Source: an uncultured Verrucomicrobiae bacterium
GTDB lineage: Bacteria > Verrucomicrobiota > Verrucomicrobiia > Chthoniobacterales > UBA10450
Length of the DNA: 64,000 nt
Assembly (NCBI GenBank): GCA_963834385.1
Contig: CAWIBO010000002.1
Location: 640,001-704,000, forward strand
Direction: 5' to 3'
Under the pieces are notes generated by a model. The model ran no database searches, was not told the DNA's origin, and saw only the letters and a program-made list of their open reading frames with translations. Position numbers and translations under genes: made by a program. Position 1 is the stretch's first letter; every line of letters starts with the position of its first letter. This document shows positions 1 through 23,354 of this stretch, one piece after another.

Positions 1-132
1 CCCGGAATCGATCACCAGGGTATCGCGCTGGGCCCGGCCGAGATAAATGGCGGCGGAAAGGCCGGCGAGACCGCCTCCGACGACGATGACCTCGCGCTGC
101 CGCGGATCGCCCAGGTCCTTGTGCTCAACCAT
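1..132 (-). CDS. NAD(P)/FAD-dependent oxidoreductase, thioredoxin-reductase-like (5' part; runs off window)
   Basis: Manual translation from ATG at 132: [44 protein letters not shown], with a GxGxxG FAD-binding motif. Not in the ORF track. Confidence 0.85.
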
Positions 133-186: not shown

Positions 187-955
187 TCACTGTCCGGGTG
201 GAGGCGCGGCCCCGGGCGTGGGGGCGGCATCCCCGGCGGGGGCGGGGGGCGCTCCGCCGGGCAGCGCTGCGTCCTCGGGCACCGCCTTGAGCTCAGGTTC
301 GGTGTAAGCTTCGGCGCGGCCGGCCAGTTCCTTGCGCAGGGCGGAGATGCCTTCCGCCGCCACGGGGCCGGCGTTGTTCCCCCATTCCGCGCGAATGTAG
401 GTGAGAACGTCGGCGATCTTCTGGTCGTTCAACGTCTTTTCCCAGGGCTGCATGACCGCGCTGCCATATTGCTGCCCCTTTACCGTGAGCGGACCCTGCA
501 GACCCTTGAGCAGGATCATGCCAAGACGCTTGGTGCTGCCGGTGACCCATTCCGACTGGCTCAGCGGAGGATAGATCCCGGCCTGCCCCCCGCCGTTGGC
601 CTGGTGGCAGGTGGCGCAGTTCTGTGAGTAGATTTTTTTGCCGCGCTCCGCCGGGGTGAGTTCGACCACGGCGTCCGCACCGCCGCCACCGGTGGTGGCA
701 CGGGCCTGGCGCGGGCGCACCGCCGAGCGGGTCGAGGCCGTCGCCGGAGAAATTGCCGGCGAACCGGCCGAGATAGGCGCCACCGAGAAAGACGGCGAGG
801 CCGTAGACGGCGATGAGCCAGAGGGAGAGCGGCTCCAGGCCGACGCGCGGCTCCAGCTTTTCGCGCTGGATCGAGGCGTGGACCTCCTGAACGTCCTCGG
901 TTTCGCCGTAATCCATGCCCTGGCGGGCCTGCCTGTCTGGATGCTGCTCGTTCAT
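187..955 (-). CDS. Membrane-anchored monoheme cytochrome c (apparent frameshift near 700)
   Basis: N-terminus MNEQHPD with a TM helix (ORF 293..1057) continues in ORF 187..783 with CATCH, YPPL and MQPW (axial Met). ATG overlaps the upstream stop (ATGA 952-955). Confidence 0.85.
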
Positions 956-1884
956 TTCGTCTGTTCGCCCGGCGGGGGCGGCGAAGGCGGGGTGACCGAT
1001 TTCACTTCCTTCAACGGATGCGTCTGGTTCAGGGCCATAATGTAGGCGACGAGACATTTGGCGTCATACGTCGGGATAATTTCCCAACCCGGTTCGGGCA
1101 TTTCCTGGCGGGCGAGGAAGAGGGCATCATGGGCGGGTCCGGCGCCGATCCGTTGTTTGCGATAAAGAAAACGGAAAGCCGGCATGGTGGAATCGCGGGT
1201 GATGCTGCGCGGCGAGTAGAGATGCCGGTGATGCCAGGGCTCGGTGTAGGGAAGGGGCGTGCCCTGGACGATCGGCGTGACCTTGCCCGGCGCGGCTGGG
1301 CGGGAGTGGGCGAGGGCTGAGCCTGGGCGGCGGCGGTCTGTGCGGGCGGACCGGAGGAGGTGGCGGAAGGAGGCATGGTTTCGGGCGCGGCGGGCGGCAC
1401 CACGGGCGGCGTGCTGCCGGGCAGGGCGCCGGCCACAGCGGGGACCGTTTCGCCGGGAACAGGCGCGCCGGAAGTGGTGCTGTAGGTGGCGGCCGGATCG
1501 GCTCCTTCCTCGTCCTGCGGAGGGGCGCGATGGCCGACGTTGGCGAGGTCGGGCCCGGTCCGAAGTTTACCGAGGAGAGCGGGCCGCTCGAAGATGTAAT
1601 CGCGGGGAGCGCTCCGACGCGTGCCCCATTTGCGGGCTGATATCCGAACCGGCGTAGTCGGCCCGAACCTGCTGGGTATGGCAGTAGACGCAGCCGTTGG
1701 CCACGTAGATTTCGCGGCCGCGCTCCGCCATGCCGGAGAGCGGCATGGGATAAGTGTCGGTGCCATCCTCCTCCATTTGCGGCTCGAGCTGCCCGATCTG
1801 GAGCGTCGGGACGAGAGCGAGGCCGAGCCAGGAAAAGGCAAAGGTGCCGAGGATGCCGAGGAAAAGTCCGGTCCAGCCCTTCAT
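952..1884 (-). CDS. ccoO: cbb3-type oxidase subunit II (CcoO/FixO)-like cytochrome c with a Pro/Ala-rich insertion (two apparent frameshifts)
   Basis: MKGWTGLF TM anchor; GREIYVANGCVYCHTQQVR; LLGKLRTGPDLANVG; WHHRHLYSPRS..STMPAFRFLY. Spread over three frames (breaks near 1638 and 1295). Confidence 0.8.
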
Positions 1885-3372
1885 AGTTTTGCCTCCGCGA
1901 GTTCTTCCTCCACCGGGTTCAGGAAAGTCGGGACGCTGGCCGGTGCGGCCGAGGCCGAAGAGCATCAGGCCGAAATGATAGGCGAAGACGAAGTGGGAGA
2001 CCGCGAGGAGAAGCCCGGCCAGGCTGCGGCCGCGCAGGTAAGGCAGGACCGACTGGGTGCTTTCGATGAAGGAAAGCCCCGGATTATTGAGGGCGATGCC
2101 CTGCATGAGGCCACCCACGAGCAGCATGGTCACCATGAGACCGATGCCGTAGGCGGACGACCAGAAATGGAGCTTGATCATGGCGGCATAACGCCATTCC
2201 CGGCCGACCAGGCGCGGGACGATGTAATACATCGAGCCGAACATGATCATGGTGAAGAAGGCATACAGACCCATGTGCGAGTAGGCGACGCTGGCCTGCG
2301 TGAAATGGACATAGGCGGCGGCGGAACGAAGCGAGATCAGGATGCCGACCACGCTGAAAGCGGTGTAGGCGATCGCGCCAAAGACGGTAAAGCGCAGCGT
2401 GGGACTGTAGCGCATGAGCGGAAAATGGCCGCGCATGGTCATGTGATGATTCAGGCCGACGGTGGCCACGGGGATAATGGAGAGGATCATGGCCGCGATG
2501 CTGGCGGTGACCATCCAGGCCGGGAACGGCCCGTCGACCAGCCGCTGCATGCCGGTCCAGCTGGCAAAGAGGGCGTAAGTCCAGAAACCGATGGCGGCCA
2601 AATGATAGCTGTAGATGGGACGCCCGATCACCTTGGGGATCATGTAATAGGCGGTGCCCAGACCGATGGCGCCAAACCAGAGGAACATGAGGTTGTTGCC
2701 ATACCACCAGTTCACGGCCGCCTGCATGACGCCCTGGACTGGGGTGACGAAGAGCATGACCTGAGCGGCGCCGTAAAGCCACGGGAACCAGAGGAAGGCA
2801 GCCAGCAGGTACCATTGCGTCACATAAATGTGGCTGGAGCGGCGGAAGCGGAACATCAGGACCGCCCAGGTCACGATCATGGTGTAGGCGACAAAAAGGA
2901 TGATGGCGGAATAACCGGGGAACTCGAGCCATTGATAGCCGGTGCTCGCGCCGGCGAGGATGGCGATCACCCCGATGACGACGCCGAGATTCCAGAAGGC
3001 ACCGCCGGCGACCAGGAGAAGCGGATGGCGCAGGGTGGTACGGCAAAGGCGGGCCATGAGCCAGATGGCGGTGCCCATGCCGGCCATGGAGGCCCAGCCG
3101 TACATCATGGCGTTGGTGTGGGCGGGCCGGAGACGGCCCCAGGTGAGCGGACCGAACTGGGCCAGCAGATCCGGCATGGTCGATTTCACAGCCACGAGGA
3201 GCGCCAGCAAAGTCCCGAGAAGCAGCCAGATCACGGCCGAGCTGTAGAACATCAGGACCGGCAGGCGGGTGGAGGCGTCGATCAAGGCGCGTTCCACCGC
3301 CTCGACATCGCGGCTGCTCACCTTCTCGCTGATCGAGAGATCCTGATCGTTGCTGGGTTCCGTCGGCATCAT
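1881..3372 (-). CDS. cbb3-type heme-copper oxidase subunit I (CcoN)-like protein with a degenerate binuclear centre
   Basis: About 12 TM helices; TWGRLRPAHTN, STGYQWLEFP, YVTQWY, YYMIPKVIGRPIYSY, YYIVPRL. Removing one base near 1940 gives the end RTASVPTFLNPVEEELAEAKL* at 1881, overlapping the ccoO ATG. Confidence 0.85.
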
Positions 3373-3377
3373 GTTGG

Positions 3378-4148
3378 TTACGGCGTGGCTCCTTGCACAG
3401 GAATGGGTGTTCCGGCGGTGGTGGCCGTCGGCTTGGGCAGCGGGACCTGACCCGGGTTCGGTTCCGCGGTGCCGCGCAGCGGAGTCGCGGCGGGAGTGGC
3501 GTTCGGCCCAGGCTGTGTTCCCGGGGGCGCGGAAGGCGGGTTGGCGGCGCCGGCCGGCTGGGCCCGGCCCATCGAGTCGGGTCCTTTTTGCGAGTCAGGC
3601 GCCGGCGTCGGGCTGGCGGCCCCCGCGGGTGCGACCGGTGTTGCGGGAGATTGGCCTGCGGCCGGTGCGGCCGGGGACGGGGTGGCTCCCGCACCGGGGG
3701 CGGGTGAAGTGCCGGCCGCTGGAGCGGTCGTGGCAGCCGGCGCGGCTCCCGCGGCGGACGCCGGGACGGCGGTGGCATCGGCGGACGGGGAAACGGCGGG
3801 TGCCGGAGCGGGCGCCGGCAGGGCAATGGGACCGGCCGCCTTGGGCGACTGGCCCGCCAGCTCGGCGGCAGAGAGTTCCATGGCCCGCTCGATCGGGATG
3901 CGGACGACGCCCTTTTCCTGATCGACCCAGGCATATTCGGCCAGAGTGGGATCGATCTCAGCGTGCAATTGTTTCAGTTTCTCGAGCCGCGCCTCGGCCC
4001 GCTTCCCTTCGTAGCGATCGCCGCGCGGAATGGCGGCGAGCAGGACAAGGACAAAGAGACCGAAGATGCTGAAGAGCAGCACCATCCCGAGCCAGGTCTT
4101 GAAGAACGGCTGGGGCTGGTTAAGCGGCGTGGTTTTTTCCAGGTCCAT
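3378..4148 (-). CDS. ActG-like single-TM ACIII accessory subunit with a long Pro/Ala-rich tail
   Basis: One N-terminal TM helix, YAWVDQEKGVVRIPIERAM motif, located directly after actF. Confidence 0.6.
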   Translation of the reverse strand: MDLEKTTPLNQPQPFFKTWLGMVLLFSIFGLFVLVLLAAIPRGDRYEGKRAEARLEKLKQLHAEIDPTLAEYAWVDQEKGVVRIPIERAMELSAAELAGQSPKAAGPIALPAPAPAPAVSPSADATAVPASAAGAAPAATTAPAAGTSPAPGAGATPSPAAPAAGQSPATPVAPAGAASPTPAPDSQKGPDSMGRAQPAGAANPPSAPPGTQPGPNATPAATPLRGTAEPNPGQVPLPKPTATTAGTPIPVQGATP

Positions 4149-4154
4149 GGTCCG

Positions 4155-5358
4155 CTAGTTCTGCATGTTGAGCGACTCGATCAGGCGCGGATCGCGCACG
4201 GGAAAGAGCGAGGTGCGCGGGAGGATGCGCAGGAAAAAGAAGGCCAGCGTGCCGCCAATGCCGAGGATGGGCAGGAGATCGAGAATGCTGGGATGAAAAC
4301 CGGTCCGGTGCAGCTCGGGCAGGATGATGATGTAGATGTCGAGCAGCTGCATGAAAAGGATCCAGCCGGCCATGACCGAGAGCCGGGTGGGCTGCTTTTT
4401 GATCGAGCGCAGGAGGAGGATGCCGAAGGGAACAAAGAACCGCCCGATGACGAGCAGGGTGCTGAGGATCCACCAACTCTCGATGTTGCGCAGGATGAAG
4501 TACTCCGTCTCCTCCGGGATGTTGGCGTACCAGATGAGCATGTACTGGCTGAAGCCGATGTAGGCCCAGAAAACGGAGAAGGCGAGCATCCACTTCCCCA
4601 TGGTGTGGTAATGCTCGAGGTTCACGATCCCCTCGAGGTAACCGGCCTTGCGCAGCGCCGTGATGATGAGCACGAGGAGGGACATCGAGCTGCCGGCGGC
4701 GCCGGCGAAGATGTAGACGCCCCACATGGTGGAGAACCATTTGTAGTTCAGGCCGCTCAGCCAATCGATCGCGGCAAAGCTGAGCGACAGCCCGAAGAGC
4801 GGGAGCGAAATAAAGGCCAGCCTCCGCATGGTGAGAGTGAAGGCGGGGTTGCCGTCCCGGTCCTGCCGGACGGAGTAACGGCGGAAAAGCCAGCCCGCGA
4901 GGCAGAAGAAGGCGAAATAGAAGATGGCGCGCGCCGAGGAAGAATCCCCAGTTCAGATAAAGCCGTTTGCTGTCGAGGAGGGTGTCGGCCCCGGGCGGGA
5001 TGGTCATCCAGCCCCAGATTTGCTCGCGAAAGATGAGGAGCGGAACGAAGAAGAGGGCGAGAAGCGGGAAGAGGGAGACGATGTTCTCGAGCTGGCGCCG
5101 CACGACCACCGACCAGTTCGCGTCGACCGCGTGGTGGACCACGATCCAGAAAAAGCAGCCGCAGAGGATGGTAAAGAAATAGGTGAACCCGAAGAGCCAG
5201 GAATAGCCAAACTGGACCGGGGCCAGGACCGCGCCGATGAGGCTGCCGACCACGCCGACCACGGCGAGCGCGCCCATGAGAGCTTTCAAGCCGGAGAAGC
5301 GGCCCGCCTCGAAATGTTCGCCCTCGGGCCTGGGCAAGGCGTGTGTTCGTTCGCTCAT
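4155..5358 (-). CDS. actF: Alternative Complex III membrane subunit ActF (frameshift near 4930)
   Basis: MSERTH start; ANWSVVVRRQLE, KRLYLN, AAIDWLSGL..KWFSTMWG, FSQYMLIWYANIPEET motifs. Confidence 0.85.
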
Positions 5359-6043
5359 TTCTTTTCCAGCTCCGCGCGTTTCTCCTCCGGCACATCGCCA
5401 AGAGTCGCATTCTGGCTGCGCTGCAGCGCCCGCAGATAGGCGATGATGGCCCAGCGGTCGTGCACCAGGACATTTCCGCCGTAGGCCAGCATGGTGCCCT
5501 TCCCGTGGGTGATGGTGTTGAAAATCTCCCCGTCGGACATGTTGCGGATGCGCTGGTCCTGCAAGGTGACAATGGTGGCGAGGCCGTATTGCTTGGCGAT
5601 GCCATTGCCGGCGCCATTGGCTCCGTGGCAGACCGCGCAGTTGATCATGAAACGTTCGCGGCCGCGCTCCATCAGTTCCGGCGTCACCGCCACCGGGAGG
5701 CCCGTGCCCCAGTTCTCGCCCATCTTCCCGGTGTCGTAATAATCCGGGTTGCTGCTGAAATGCAGGGCCGGCAACGGCTGCCAGGGCCGCCTGGTCCTCG
5801 CCAGGCGAAGACTGCGGACGCGGCATGTCGTATCCGATCGGGACGGTGCCCGGGACCGGCGGCCCGGCTGCCGCGACCGTCGGGGAAAAAGGAGAGGGGC
5901 GCCTGCGGCCGCACTTTCGGCTGCCGGTCCATGTCCGGGAAAATCTCGATGGGCGGCTCGGTGCTCTTTTGCCCGCGAAAGCCGAGGGCGGCGACAAGAG
6001 CGACGCCGATCAGGAGAAGGATGAGGAAAAAGCCGCGGAGCAT
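5355..6043 (-). CDS. actE: ACIII monoheme cytochrome c subunit ActE (two frameshifts)
   Basis: IFPDMDRQPKVRPQ, PPVPGTVP, RGRERFMINCAVCHG, GEIFNTITHGKGTM, DRWAIIAYLRALQ. Confidence 0.85.
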
Positions 6044-6044
6044 A

Positions 6045-6599
6045 TCAGTCTTCGTGAATCAGGGTGACGTGTTGCCCGCCGGTCTGCTCGAGGAGCCGCC
6101 GGGTCTCGGCCTCGGTGAAGCGGGGGTCGCGCGCCTCGATGACGAGGAAAAAGCCGTCGTTGGTGGCGCGCTCAAAGCGTTTCCAGTTAAAGACTGGATG
6201 GTACCACCGGGGCAAACCGTTCATGATGAGCATGGCGAAAAAGGCGGAGAAAGCCGCCAGGAGCACGGTGAGCTCGAACATGATCGGGAAAAAAGCCGGC
6301 ACGGTGAAGAAGTCACGCGGTTTGCCGTGCACGATGAGCGGATAGATGAACGAGGAAGGTCCAAAGGTCAGCGTGGCCGCGGTGAGAAACCCGGTGACAC
6401 CGCCGGCCAGCACCGCGGCGCTGAGCCACGATTTTCCGAGGCCCATGGCGTCGTCCATGCCGTGGATGGGAAAGGGCGAGTGCACGTCCCAGCGCTTGAA
6501 CCCGGCGTCGCGCACCTGCTTGGCCGCCTCGTAGAGGGCGCTTGGGCTCGCGTATTCCGCGCCCATCCCATAAACCTTGTTGCCGCGCGGCGTCCTCAT
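6045..6599 (-). CDS. actD: ACIII subunit ActD (DUF3341)
   Basis: [30 protein letters not shown]; two TM helices; operon position. Confidence 0.9.
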
Positions 6600-8068
6600 G
6601 AGGTGCGCTCCTTTCCGCCGGCCTGGACCACATGATGCTGGAGCGGGGAGACGTGGTGGGGATCAGCCTCCGGCAGGACAATTTTCACCTCCGACATCGC
6701 GATCATCGGGAGGTAGCGAATGAAAAGGAGGAAGAGCGAAAGGAAGATGCCGAAGGTGCCGGCAAACGTCCAGATATCGACCCAGGTGGGATAAAACATG
6801 GCCCAGGAGCTGGGAAGAAAGTCGCGGTGCAGGCCGCCCACGATGATGATGAAACGCTCGAACCACATGCCGGCGTTCACGCACATGCAGACGAAGTAGA
6901 CCACGTAGATGTTGGCCCGGAATTTCTTGAACCAGAAAAGCTGGGGCGCGAGGGCGTTGCAGAAAAGCATGCCGACCCACCAGTACCACCAGTAGGGCCC
7001 GAGGATGCGGTTCACGAAAGCGTAACGCTCATATTGGTTGCCGCTGTACCAGGCGACAAAGAACTCCATGGCGTAGGCGTAGCTGACGATCGAGCCGGTG
7101 AGCAGGATGATCTTCGCCATCTTGTCGATGTGCTGGATGGTGATGACGTCGTGCAGCTTGTAGATCGCGCGGGCCGGGATCATCAGCGTGAGCACCATGG
7201 CGAAGCCGCCGAAAATGGCGCCGGCGACGAAATAGGGCGGGAAGATGGTGGTGTGCCAGGTGGGCAGGACCGAGGTGGCGAAGTCGAAGGAAACGACGCT
7301 GTGCACGGAGAGCACGAGCGGCGTGGAAAGACCGGCCAGGAGCAGGTAGGCCATCTCGTAATGCCGCCAGTTGCGGTTGGACCCGCGCCAGCCGAGCGCG
7401 AAGACGCCATAGAGCATCTTCTTGATCTTCGAGGTCGCCCGGTCGCGCAGGGTGCCGAGGTCGGGGATCAGGCCGGTGTACCAGAAGAGGACCGAGACGG
7501 TGAAATAGGTCGAGACGGCGAAAACGTCCCAGAGAAGCGGGCTGCGGAAGTTCGGCCAGATGGCGTTGGCGTTCGGCACCGGGGCAAGGAACCAGGCCAT
7601 CCAGACACGGCCGACGTGGACGCCGGGGAAAATGGCGGCGCAAATGACGGCGAAGAGCGTCATGGCCTCGGCGGCGCGGTTGATGGAGGTGCGCCATTTC
7701 TGGCGGAGGAGGAAGAGAATGGCGGAGATCAGGGTGCCGGCGTGACCGATACCGATCCAGAAAACGAAGTTGGTGATGTCCCAGGCCCAGCCGACGGGAT
7801 GGTTCAGGCCCCAGGTGCCGACCCCGGTGGAGATCTGGTAGCCGAGACAGAAGAGGCCGATGGCGGCGAGGAGCGAGGTGCAGGCAAAGGCGACCCACCA
7901 CCAGCGGGGCGCGGCTTCCTCCACCACCCCGGAAATGCGCTGGGTAATCCAGTTGAAGTTCCGGTTGTTCAGGACCAGCGGCACGTGGGCGAGCGGCTGC
8001 TCGACGGACGATGAGGCCTCCGCCCTGATCACTTCCGGCGCTGTGATTCCTTCGTTCGCGTTTGCCAT
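6596..8068 (-). CDS. actC: ACIII quinol-binding subunit ActC (NrfD family)
   Basis: [72 protein letters not shown]. Confidence 0.95.
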
Positions 8069-8073
8069 GGCCG

Positions 8074-11535
<3,462 letters not shown>

Positions 11536-11540
11536 GTCGT

Positions 11541-12266
11541 TTAGCGGTGGCAGCCCTGGCAGTTCAGGGGCGGCTGCACGTTCCACTTCTCCTTTAAGAC
11601 CTGGCCAATCTCCCGCTGGGTCAGTTTTTCCTTCTTCGACCAATCCTCGGTCACGCCGCTGGGCTGACCGTACTCGGCCACGAACTCGGCCGGTTTCACG
11701 TCCGACGGTTTCCAATCGAGATTATAAACCTGGTCCATCGGACGGAGATGGTCCTCCGGTTTGCGGTGACACTCGAGACACCAGCCCATGCTGTGCGGCT
11801 TGTCGTGCCGGACCACTTCCATGTGGTTGACCTGCCCGTGACAGCTGGCGCAGCTGATCCCGCGGTTCACATGCGCGGCGTGGTTGTAATAGACGTAATC
11901 AGGCGAACGATGGATCCAGACCCAGGAGATCGGCTCGCCCGTCTTCCAGCTTTCACGCAGCGGCTCCAGCTTCGGATTCTCCTTCTGCACCTGAGTATGG
12001 CAGGCCATGCAGGTCTGGGTCGTGGGCAGGTTCGAATGCGCGGCCACGTCGACAAAACTATGGCAGTAGCGGCAGTCCATCCCCAGCTGGGTCACATGCA
12101 GGTCATGCGGGAACGGCACCGGCTGGATCGGCTCGTAACCGACCCGGGTATATTTCGGGGTCACGTAATACCACGTCGCCCCGGTCAGGGCGGTCACGAG
12201 CACGACCGCGCAGACGAGCAGCTTGAGCGGCAGCCAATTCGTCCAGCGCGGAAAAAAGTTCGCCAT
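11541..12266 (-). CDS. actA: ACIII pentaheme cytochrome c subunit ActA
   Basis: N-terminal TM helix, PIQPVPFPH, five CxxCH motifs (CRYCH, CMACH, CASCH, CLECH, CQGCH). Confidence 0.95.
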   Translation of the reverse strand: MANFFPRWTNWLPLKLLVCAVVLVTALTGATWYYVTPKYTRVGYEPIQPVPFPHDLHVTQLGMDCRYCHSFVDVAAHSNLPTTQTCMACHTQVQKENPKLEPLRESWKTGEPISWVWIHRSPDYVYYNHAAHVNRGISCASCHGQVNHMEVVRHDKPHSMGWCLECHRKPEDHLRPMDQVYNLDWKPSDVKPAEFVAEYGQPSGVTEDWSKKEKLTQREIGQVLKEKWNVQPPLNCQGCHR

Positions 12267-14988: not shown

Positions 14989-16200
14989 TCAGGAGTAAAG
15001 ATATTCGTCGTGATACTCGCGCTGCGGCGCGAACTGGACCTGGGCGTCCCCGGCCGTTTCCGGATACTCGAAGATTTTGCCCTCGTAGTTCCGGATGACG
15101 ATTTTCTCGTTGTCGTGATAAAGCACGTAATCCGGATTGACCGGGACCTTGCCGCCGCCGCCGGGGGCATCGATGACGAACTGCGGCACGCCGTAGCCGG
15201 TGGTGTGGCCGCGCAGCCCCTCGATGATTTCCACGCCCTTCGCGACCGAGGCGCGCAGGTGGGATGAGCCGGTGATCAGATCGCACTGGTAGAGGTAATA
15301 GGGACGCACCCGGCACATGAGCAGCTTGTGCACGAGCGTCTTCATCGTCTCCAGGTCGTCGTTCACGCCGCGCAGGAGCACGCTCTGGTTGCCGAGCGGG
15401 ATGCCGTGGTTGGCCAGGCGTTCCAGCGCCTCCTTCACCTCCGTGGTGAGCTCGCGCGGATGGTTCACGTGCACGCTCATCCAGAGCGGATGATACTTCT
15501 GCAGCATCGCGCAGAGCTCCGGCGTGATCCGCTGCGGCAGGAAAATCGGCACGCGCGTGCCGATGCGCAGAAACTCGATGTGCGGGATCGCCCGCAGGCG
15601 GCTGAGGATTTTCTCCAGCTTTGCCGTCGCTGAAGAGCAGGGCGTCGCCGCCGCGAAAGCAGCACGTCGCGAACCTCGGTGTGTTCCTCGAGATAACGGA
15701 AGGCGGCCTCGAATTCCGTGTGCAGTTCCTGCTCGCCCACGCCGCTCACCACGCGGCTGCGGGTGCAGTAGCGGCAGTAGCTGGCGCAGCGGTCGGTCAC
15801 CAGGAAGAGCACCCGGTCCGGATAGCGATGGACCAGGCCCGGGACCGGCATGTGCGAATCCTCGCCGCAGGGGTCCGCCATTTCGTAGGGCGACGTCCAG
15901 GTTTCCTCGATCCGGGGAATGACCTGGCGGCGGATCGGGCAATCCGGATTATTGGGCTCGATCAGGTTGAAGAAATGCGGGAGTGATGGCCAGGGCCAGC
16001 TTGTCGCCGGAGAGCAGCACGCCGGCGCGCTCTTCGGCAGAAAGCTGCAGATGACGTTCCAATTGCGGCAGCGACGTGACGCGATTCTTCAGCTGCCACT
16101 TCCAGTCATTCCACTGCTCCGCCGGCACCTCCGGGAAGTATCCCGGTGCGTGCGAAATAAACTGTCTGCCCTCGCTGTTCCCTGCGGTGAGATTCACCAT
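14989..16200 (-). CDS. kamA: KamA-family radical SAM lysine 2,3-aminomutase (frameshifts near 15980 and 15650)
   Basis: WNDWKWQ, DPCGE, GLVHRYPDRVL, CASYCRYC, NQSVLLRGVND, RPYYLYQCD, PGGGGKVP, RNYEG across three ORFs. Confidence 0.88.

Positions 16201-19475: not shown

Positions 19476-19501
<26 letters not shown>
18869..19501 (+). CDS. Hypothetical lipoprotein with a basic low-complexity C-terminus
   Basis: Signal peptide ending in FLAC lipobox; K/R/T/A-rich tail. Confidence 0.65.

Positions 19502-23354
<3,853 letters not shown>

Follow-up and report, generated by a model that had tools for sequence, protein, structure and literature searches.

A window of 64,000 nucleotides from an uncultured Verrucomicrobiae bacterium of the lineage UBA10450 (GenBank assembly GCA_963834385.1, contig CAWIBO010000002.1, positions 640,001 to 704,000) contains an operon in which the genes for alternative complex III (ACIII), actA to actG, are followed by a ccoN-like gene, a ccoO-like gene and a gene for a monoheme cytochrome c, an order proposed by an initial annotation and confirmed here. 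The subject of this work is the ccoN-like gene. Its product is predicted to fold as a 12-helix heme-copper oxidase subunit I closest to CcoN, with model matches to CcoN; its score against the ccoN equivalog TIGR00780 was 183, short of the cut-off of 583, as may also be the case for intact members of this divergent subfamily. The protein was aligned to Pseudomonas stutzeri CcoN (3mk7_A, E 8.6e-45), the reference for residue numbering, and compared with two sets of relatives. The first is a family of 82 genes made up of the query, 80 loci (the best 80 of 303 confirmed stretches) and one further gene; loci L054 and L087 hold one and the same gene, and two more pairs each come from a single genome. 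Its named loci belong to Chthoniobacterales, Spartobacteria, Candidatus (Ca.) Udaeobacter and unclassified Verrucomicrobia metagenome-assembled genomes (MAGs). The second set is 26 intact orthologs from the same phylum. The features of the gene are as follows.

1881..3372, minus strand: pseudo-CcoN, about 496 amino acids, 12 helices; an assembly indel near 1940 affects the last ~19 residues only
3118-3120 (CAC), minus strand: His85, low-spin heme b ligand H60, kept; His in 77/79 informative family genes
2695-2697 (AAC), minus strand: Asn226, replacing CuB ligand H207; Asn in 82/82 family genes, His in 26/26 intact orthologs
2683..2685, minus strand: Phe230, replacing G211; Phe in 82/82 family genes, Gly in 26/26 intact orthologs
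2671..2673, minus strand: Gly234, replacing T215; Gly in 82/82, Thr in 26/26
2596..2598, minus strand: Ala259, replacing S240; Ala in 82/82, Ser in 26/26
2563-2565 (GCC), minus strand: Ala270, replacing the cross-link Tyr251; Ala in 42 and Ser in 40 of 82 family genes
2542-2547, minus strand: Gln276-Arg277 (Q276 CAG 2545-2547, R277 CGG 2542-2544), replacing CuB ligands H257-H258; Gln in 80/82, Arg in 81/82
2533-2535, minus strand: Asp280, fixed together with Q276-R277 and invariant in the family
2281-2283 (TAC), minus strand: Tyr364, replacing heme b3 ligand H345; Tyr in 78 and Phe in 4 of 82
2275-2277 (CAC), minus strand: His366, heme b ligand H347, kept; His in 81 and Tyr in 1 of 82

Compared with the P. 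stutzeri protein, all five positions of the binuclear site are replaced (H207N, Y251A, H257Q, H258R and H345Y), with reference and query residues corresponding as H60=H85, H207=N226, Y251=A270, H257=Q276, H258=R277, H345=Y364 and H347=H366, and all seven codons lie within one open frame. The heme b3 proximal His345 and the three CuB histidines H207, H257 and H258 are therefore absent, as is the cross-link Tyr (A270); a family-fixed Y266 lies one turn away, and its His partner is lost. The low-spin heme b ligands His60 and His347 are present in the sequence as H85 and H366, which may still bind heme b. A nitric oxide (NO) reductase would have a high-spin heme together with a non-heme metal that is bound by three His and by Glu or Asp, whereas the query has no His at the four binuclear positions. 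The initial annotation had named the five replacements and the two retained histidines, with codon positions for all but the Tyr to Ala change, and all of this was borne out by the alignment and by reading of the codons, and it had concluded that the protein does not reduce O2. The gene is under purifying selection and its product retains neither a CuB ligand nor the cross-link Tyr nor the heme b3 His; this conclusion holds, and the protein is almost certainly neither an O2 nor a NO reductase. Judged from its sequence, it is a catalytically dead CcoN, a pseudo-enzyme, of a family that includes Ca. Udaeobacter and that descends from the ACIII-linked verrucomicrobial CcoN subfamily.

The pattern H-N-A/S-Q-R-Y-H was found in 115/119 close homologs (75-81% identical, the window's own entry excluded), the remaining 4 deviating at one site each. 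The ratio of nonsynonymous to synonymous substitution rates (dN/dS, Nei-Gojobori) had a median of 0.047 and a maximum of 0.093 in 22 pairs with dS 0.02-0.5, and lay at 0.06-0.09 in the bins of higher dS, which come close to saturation; 93/3321 pairs were saturated and dropped. Within the family, 162/446 positions are invariant and 263/446 are at least 95% conserved. Short-read soil contigs match the codons of Y364 and H366 (three runs) and of A270, Q276 and R277 (one run), N226 lying outside their coverage. A ccoN-family match was present in 54/61 genomes of the family (a tally that includes the unpublished genome G206), and 0 pass the ccoN cut-off. The replacement residues are thus conserved with dN/dS below 1, the outcome that the initial annotation's reading called for, and its argument that indel errors were not the cause of the changes was upheld by the shared pattern and by the short reads where they cover it. 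One of the family genomes, G220, also holds a second ccoN-ccoO pair (L188, G220:C1:492867-494185), frameshifted, with intact motifs and ~46% identical to the query, which was perhaps acquired laterally.

A decaying pseudogene or a sequencing artefact might be suspected, because the assembly has frameshifts that affect the tail of the ccoN-like gene, ccoO and the cytochrome c gene. Frameshifts also occur in coxI, actE and actF, and also in a ctaA-like gene; they look like assembly errors, relatives carry whole versions of the same genes, and in ccoO one short-read contig shows an extra base at 1295. Together with dN/dS below 0.1, the agreement of the short reads and the match in most family genomes, this refutes the explanation, to which we give practically no weight. 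The ligand-less gene is retained under purifying selection by a widespread group within the soil Verrucomicrobia, and is neither an error nor a pseudogene. An open reading frame (ORF) of 601 amino acids at 1567-3372 is an artefact, the one-base indel near 1940 joining the ccoN-like gene to ccoO. Elsewhere in the window, a lysine 2,3-aminomutase-like gene (14989-16200) is split over several frames, a further sign of assembly indels.

To place the family, 201 genomes of the phylum were searched, of which 58 had matches and 45 carry the ACIII-linked ccoN subfamily; 26 of these copies have the full set of seven residues, unlike the other 19. The intact orthologs are 43-53% identical to the query and have act genes upstream in 18/19 examined, one lying at a contig end and 7 of the 26 falling outside the examined set. 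In a tree built without the ligand columns, the dead copies need at least 3 changes, and a single dead clade was rejected (approximately unbiased test, p-AU 0.0004, 22 rows), which indicates that the act-ccoN-ccoO-cytochrome c operon has lost its ligands independently at least 3 times. Clustering at 50% identity gave 151 rows, 22 of them short and dropped, leaving 129 full-length representatives: 5 are intact, 62 keep 0/7 residues and 43 keep one. None of the 124 ligand-less representatives keeps the CuB triad, and both low-spin heme b histidines survive in just 3. The replacement residues differ between losses, as expected if the chemistry of the pocket no longer matters. The window's family is a comparatively little-eroded case, in which the binuclear site is gone and the heme b ligands remain. 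An apparent intermediate stage was seen in P0126, an Opitutales MAG protein with the pattern HHAQYHH, in which four His are kept and the Tyr and both helix VII His are lost.

The conserved replacements could be read as a new catalytic site, with a high-spin heme ligated by Tyr364 and with Asn226, Gln276, Arg277 and Asp280 on the distal side, acting on peroxide or NO or in sensing; the initial annotation had offered a Tyr-ligated heme enzyme as one possibility. All family genes have N226, F230 and D280, and 81/82 have R277; according to the accessible text of PMC11214002, new active sites have arisen repeatedly in the superfamily. The new NO reductase families described there, however, keep most metal ligands. 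Asn, Gln, Arg and Tyr codons are each one step from a His codon, so that all four replacements are codon neighbours of what they replaced. Tyr364 has become Phe four separate times among the 82 family genes, Tyr stands at the heme b3 His position in only 5/124 ligand-less representatives, and the other dead lineages share none of the residues of this site. In addition, Phe at position 211 should fill the distal pocket, and T215 and S240 are lost. Given the repeated change of Tyr to Phe and the loss of the heme b His in most dead lineages, Tyr-heme chemistry is unlikely, and we regard a new catalytic site of any of these kinds as very improbable.

A related proposal is that the family protein still binds low-spin heme b and puts it to redox use, either buffering electrons or forming a branch that links CcoO with the membrane, for instance with the quinone pool. 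In its favour are H85 in 77/79, H366 in 81/82, R82 (R57) in 76/79 and E150 (E125) in 82/82 family genes, and R57, E122 and E125 make up the periplasmic cavity of cbb3 in the available part of PMC3431322. The residue that putatively corresponds to the Ca2+ ligand E122 (a role described in the accessible part of PMC10256718) is Gln in the query and in 50/82 and Glu in 26/82, an assignment taken from the E-x-x-E motif, where the HMMER alignment places the gap differently. One low-spin His has changed to Tyr three separate times within the family, no acceptor is apparent past heme b, and, with 263/446 positions at least 95% conserved, the conservation of the heme b His is not exceptional. Since so few dead representatives keep both low-spin His, a conduit is conceivable for the window's family only. 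It is an unlikely account, and of the initial annotation's options of a heme b conduit and of a scaffold on ACIII it is the scaffold that is best supported.

Besides the ligands, G211F, T215G, S240A and Asp280 are fixed in 82/82 family genes, in contrast with 25-26/26 intact orthologs. From the sequence, F230 plausibly fills the space left by the lost Tyr251, and D280 may pair with R277. T215 and S240 belong to what we take to be the proton-input channel residues of cbb3 (T215, Y223, S240, N289 and Y317); of this set, T215G and S240A occur in 82/82 and Y223, N289 and Y317 are kept. The S240A change is convergent: Ala stands in 106/124 dead representatives, and three lineages that died separately have it in 2/2, 2/2 and 10/10 rows. 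Of the 17 Ser/Thr sites that intact copies conserve, this one shows the sharpest replacement, followed by S145G at 90/124; exceptions are Ser in G081 and G132, Gly in G111 and Ala in one intact representative. If the channel roles hold, lineages that lose the active site may, speculatively, close the proton channel and so prevent a leak. Ser to Ala is a common helix substitution, and the convergence is therefore only a lead.

These substitutions also bear on a non-redox role for the 12-helix protein, whether as an ion or gas channel, a heme carrier or a proton-coupling arm of ACIII. The polar residues R80, R108, N128, E150, N308 and T358 are conserved at 82-92% across the dead lineages, as such a role might lead one to expect. 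Polar residues invariant in intact orthologs are nevertheless retained at 45% in dead lineages versus 63% for non-polar ones, and the convergent change at 259 takes away a hydroxyl and adds none, which makes this role highly improbable.

The pseudo-CcoN gene stands in the following surroundings.

1..132, minus strand: start of a pyridine nucleotide-disulphide oxidoreductase gene
187..955, minus strand: membrane-anchored CcoP-like monoheme cytochrome c, with a frameshift near 712
952..1884, minus strand: ccoO-like monoheme cytochrome c, CxxCH kept, frameshifted here, with an Ala/Pro-rich insert
3378..4148, minus strand: gene at the actG position, a small membrane protein with an Ala/Pro-rich tail; no Pfam match, named by position
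4155..5358, minus strand: actF, frameshifted; its C-terminal piece is without a Pfam match, and the name, given by position, is partly our presumption
5355..6043, minus strand: actE, monoheme cytochrome c, frameshifted
6045..6599, minus strand: actD (PF11821, E 2.3e-59)
6596..8068, minus strand: actC, NrfD family (PF03916, E 5.4e-23)
8074..11535, minus strand: actB, molybdopterin-like and Fe-S domains
11541..12266, minus strand: actA, five hemes, without an extra mobile monoheme domain
G000:C2 ~631900-638980: A-type oxidase operon coxI-III-IV-x-II-ctaA-like-ctaB-sco, starting ~1.1 kb beyond the window start

The whole ccoO gene of a relative matches PF02433 (E 7.2e-24). The CcoP-like protein has a hydrophobic N-terminal segment, a Gly/Ala/Pro linker and a heme domain, and matches PF13442 and, at E 3.1e-10 and with a score well below the cut-off, TIGR00782. 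The initial annotation's statement that the operon has no ccoP was accordingly right in part only. What it drew from the missing ccoP, ccoQ and ccoGHIS genes does not follow, because the intact orthologs have the same three-gene block and ccoG, which tracks a second, longer ccoN-type gene, is missing in 10/26 genomes with an intact copy; the absence of di-heme ccoP and of ccoG is ancestral and no mark of decay. In the family, the heme domain of CcoO is interrupted by a long insert rich in Ala, Pro and Ser (window ~1250-1520), the tail of the protein at the actG position being similar, and the CcoO motif spacing has a median of 135 residues in the family versus 27 in intact and other dead lineages.

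Among the 80 family loci, act genes lie directly upstream of the ccoN-like gene in 73, the other 7 having less than 500 bases upstream, and ccoO and the cytochrome c gene follow downstream in 79 and 70. The CxxCH motif is present in CcoO in 73/73 family copies and 16/16 other dead loci, and in the CcoP-like protein in 69/70 and 16/16, the latter with the axial Met in 16/16. Heme c motifs kept in both cytochromes indicate that selection spares the c-hemes while the core is stripped. Two dead loci, L126 (G081) and L134 (G192), have one more monoheme cytochrome c gene, placed after actF and before the dead ccoN. The fully stripped copies of verrucomicrobial methanotrophs (L138, L140 and L184 of G111, G132 and G093, and P0261) lie immediately upstream of an A-type operon, and G132 has an insertion of 7.3 kb that splits actF from the ccoN-like gene.

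A separate intact oxidase, whose presence the initial annotation had left to be checked, is encoded by the nearby A-type operon of the window's genome (G000, 89.6% complete). Its CoxI has MHGT, HPEVY, WAHH and HFH and thus intact ligands. The label aa3 is based on a UbiA-family gene and on the gene that we presume to be ctaA-like. One oxidoreductase gene separates the cytochrome c gene from this operon; it is the gene at window 1-132 (L005:15080-16132) and also occurs in a minority of family loci. At this completeness, neither another heme-copper oxidase nor a bd oxidase was found in G000. In the family, coxI lies within the flank in 35/54 loci with at least 9.5 kb downstream. Subunit II of the A-type operon has the CuA motif and no heme c (0/16 linked subunits II in the family), and the ActA-like ORFs have five CxxCH in 47/47 counted. 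In G000, ActE and the CcoP-like protein are the only matches of PF00034 and PF13442, and in the 99% complete relatives G205 and G234 the same two proteins, judged by position, are the only matches of PF00034. In the linked subunit II (G000:C2 634519-635409; L005:10519-11409) the CuA motif reads C-x-Q-x-C in 16/16 family loci and 6/6 neighbours, with Glu in place of Gln (C-x-E-x-C) in 20/20 caa3 loci of other Verrucomicrobia. Many family genomes have extra COX1-family genes, with frames of ~750 and ~570-600 amino acids and scores of ~525, 500 and 270 bits.

With a five-heme ActA and a subunit II without heme c, we propose that electrons pass through the cytochromes of the dead core. On this proposal, to which the sequences lead us to assign a probability of about 55%, pseudo-CcoN would be the scaffold of a CcoO/CcoP-like electron relay from ACIII to the A-type oxidase. 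The ancestor would have been an ACIII-linked cbb3 oxidase; with an A-type oxidase also present, catalysis would have become dispensable and the CcoN body not. The body, its O2-reducing centre lost and the space filled, would have been retained for anchoring and orienting CcoO and the CcoP-like cytochrome on its tether. Electrons would run from quinol to ACIII (ActA, ActE), then to the hemes c of the CcoP-like protein and CcoO, to CuA of the A-type oxidase and to O2, the relay providing, in the window's family, the heme c that ActA and subunit II both lack here. Low-spin heme b, if still bound in the family, would be a structural or buffering leftover, and Ser240Ala and Thr215Gly could, on channel roles that we presume, have shut a proton channel without further use. 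An A-type oxidase is present in 19/19 genomes with a dead copy, and 6/6 genomes without one keep an intact copy.

Several observations weigh against the relay. The co-occurrence just given is weak (Fisher p=0.03), and even this value is overstated, since kin are not independent and 4/6 of the genomes without an A-type oxidase belong to one genus. In 19/54 loci coxI does not lie within 9.5 kb, and additional cytochromes c of class I are encoded in most family genomes (18/20 have 3-10 matches). In the other branch (f6, f7 and f15), subunit II of the caa3 oxidase carries its own heme c in 12/12 dead and 8/8 intact genomes, so that a missing heme is not a general reason. The intact orthologs G174 and G005 also adjoin an A-type oxidase without heme c, and adjacency to the A-type operon therefore predates ligand loss. 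A second, longer ccoN-type gene in 11/19 dead-copy genomes is an equally possible electron acceptor.

Some of the same observations suit an assembly-only role, in which the dead three-gene block is needed for the assembly or stability of ACIII or of a supercomplex, ActE passes electrons straight to the oxidases and the c-hemes act as sinks or have different partners. The block is retained where caa3 already has a heme c, it lies behind act in 15/16 dead loci of other lineages, and the residues conserved across the 124 dead representatives are mostly Gly, Pro, Trp and aromatic. ActE is also able to be a direct donor in Rhodothermus marinus, according to the portion of PMC8552683 at hand. The retention of heme c motifs and axial Met in nearly all dead loci is not what this role would lead one to expect, and the same portion describes a Flavobacterium johnsoniae ACIII that functions without such subunits, with the six subunits ActA-F. 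We consider assembly alone rather unlikely, and prefer the scaffolded relay.

A broader reading, which the sequences permit us to put forward tentatively, is that Verrucomicrobiota have repeatedly made an entire terminal oxidase into a cofactor-free docking platform, giving a three-part respiratory supercomplex of ACIII, dead cbb3 and aa3 whose dead core was actively sealed by the convergent Ser240Ala change and whose cytochromes were rewired to another oxidase, and that the window's family would be a stage arrested on the way, with heme b still in place. If this is true, the "high-affinity cbb3" attributed to verrucomicrobial methanotrophs and suggested for Ca. Udaeobacter would be nonexistent, and their low-O2 respiration would be carried out by other enzymes.

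Apart from these genes, the window contains at 19476-21332 an ORF fusing a BadF/BadG-type kinase domain with a SIS domain, which we take to resemble the N-acetylmuramic acid kinase-etherase fusion.

In the accessible parts of the literature, Methylacidiphilum's high O2 affinity is tied by PMC6688271 to the cbb3 next to ACIII. PMC8498564 describes the ACIII-linked cbb3 as a functional C-type oxidase of Opitutaceae and methanotrophs, and cbb3 is counted with the oxidases of methanotrophs in this source and in PMC10205796. No more than 1 of the 7 residues is kept in three genomes that bear pmoA and in WP_178086931.1, a protein of Methylacidimicrobium tartarophylax; the residue check covers these genomes and this protein, strains Kam1 and SolV not being among them by name. 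These stripped methanotroph copies undercut the link of the ACIII-adjacent cbb3 gene to high O2 affinity. The accessible table of PMC11214002, a 2024 survey of the superfamily, has C=0 for M. fumariolicum and for 17/18 UBA10450 genomes, which agrees with ligand loss. No ligand loss is described for the gene in the accessible parts of PMC10205796, PMC13608581, PMC4013037, PMC6431628, PMC5900883, PMC10256718, PMC3431322 and bioRxiv 10.64898/2026.01.22.701106, and no description of a ligand-less ACIII-linked ccoN was found in the open literature, subscription literature lying outside the search. Database entries for the homologs bear the name "cbb3-type cytochrome c oxidase subunit I", the misnaming that the initial annotation had foreseen, and the present result corrects the physiology read from such genomes. 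It also gives a handle, testable in culturable strains that are non-pathogenic, on how ACIII passes electrons to its oxidase, and a natural sequence of enzymes lost independently, its stages running from intact copies through partial to complete stripping and marked by a single sharp convergent change.

Compared with the active cbb3 oxidase of P. stutzeri (3MK7/5DJQ), the query differs by the absent CuB ligands, Tyr cross-link and heme b3 His and by T215G, S240A and G211F; the CcoN-CcoO-CcoP arrangement of that enzyme is matched here in a CcoO with heme c, with a single-heme third subunit and a linkage to ACIII instead. The intact ACIII-linked cbb3 enzymes of Verrucomicrobiota (26 genomes, e.g. 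G174, G005 and G168) are direct orthologs with the same act-N-O-c operon and keep all seven residues, whereas the window's family does not. For the NO reductase, NO dismutase and N2O-reductase-like families (cNOR, qNOR, eNOR, sNOR, gNOR and nNOR) the comparison was made through the available text of PMC11214002, in which cNOR and qNOR retain the high-spin heme along with three His and a Glu, and gNOR is termed the first family in which even a single active-site His is exchanged. The query has lost all four His of the binuclear site, and this conserved heme-copper oxidase lineage without a binuclear centre falls outside the families of that survey, as far as its accessible text goes. In the ACIII-aa3 of F. 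johnsoniae and the ACIII-caa3 of R. marinus, ACIII likewise feeds an A-type oxidase and a terminal heme c bridges the gap. According to the accessible part of PMC8552683, the last step in F. johnsoniae is proposed to run via a sixth, mobile heme on ActA, and the R. marinus ActA is without this heme while its caa3 has an extra heme c. The bridging heme thus sits on the mobile domain of ActA or on subunit II in these two systems and on neither here, where, unlike in both, the two operons are separated by a dead cbb3 block that carries two hemes c.

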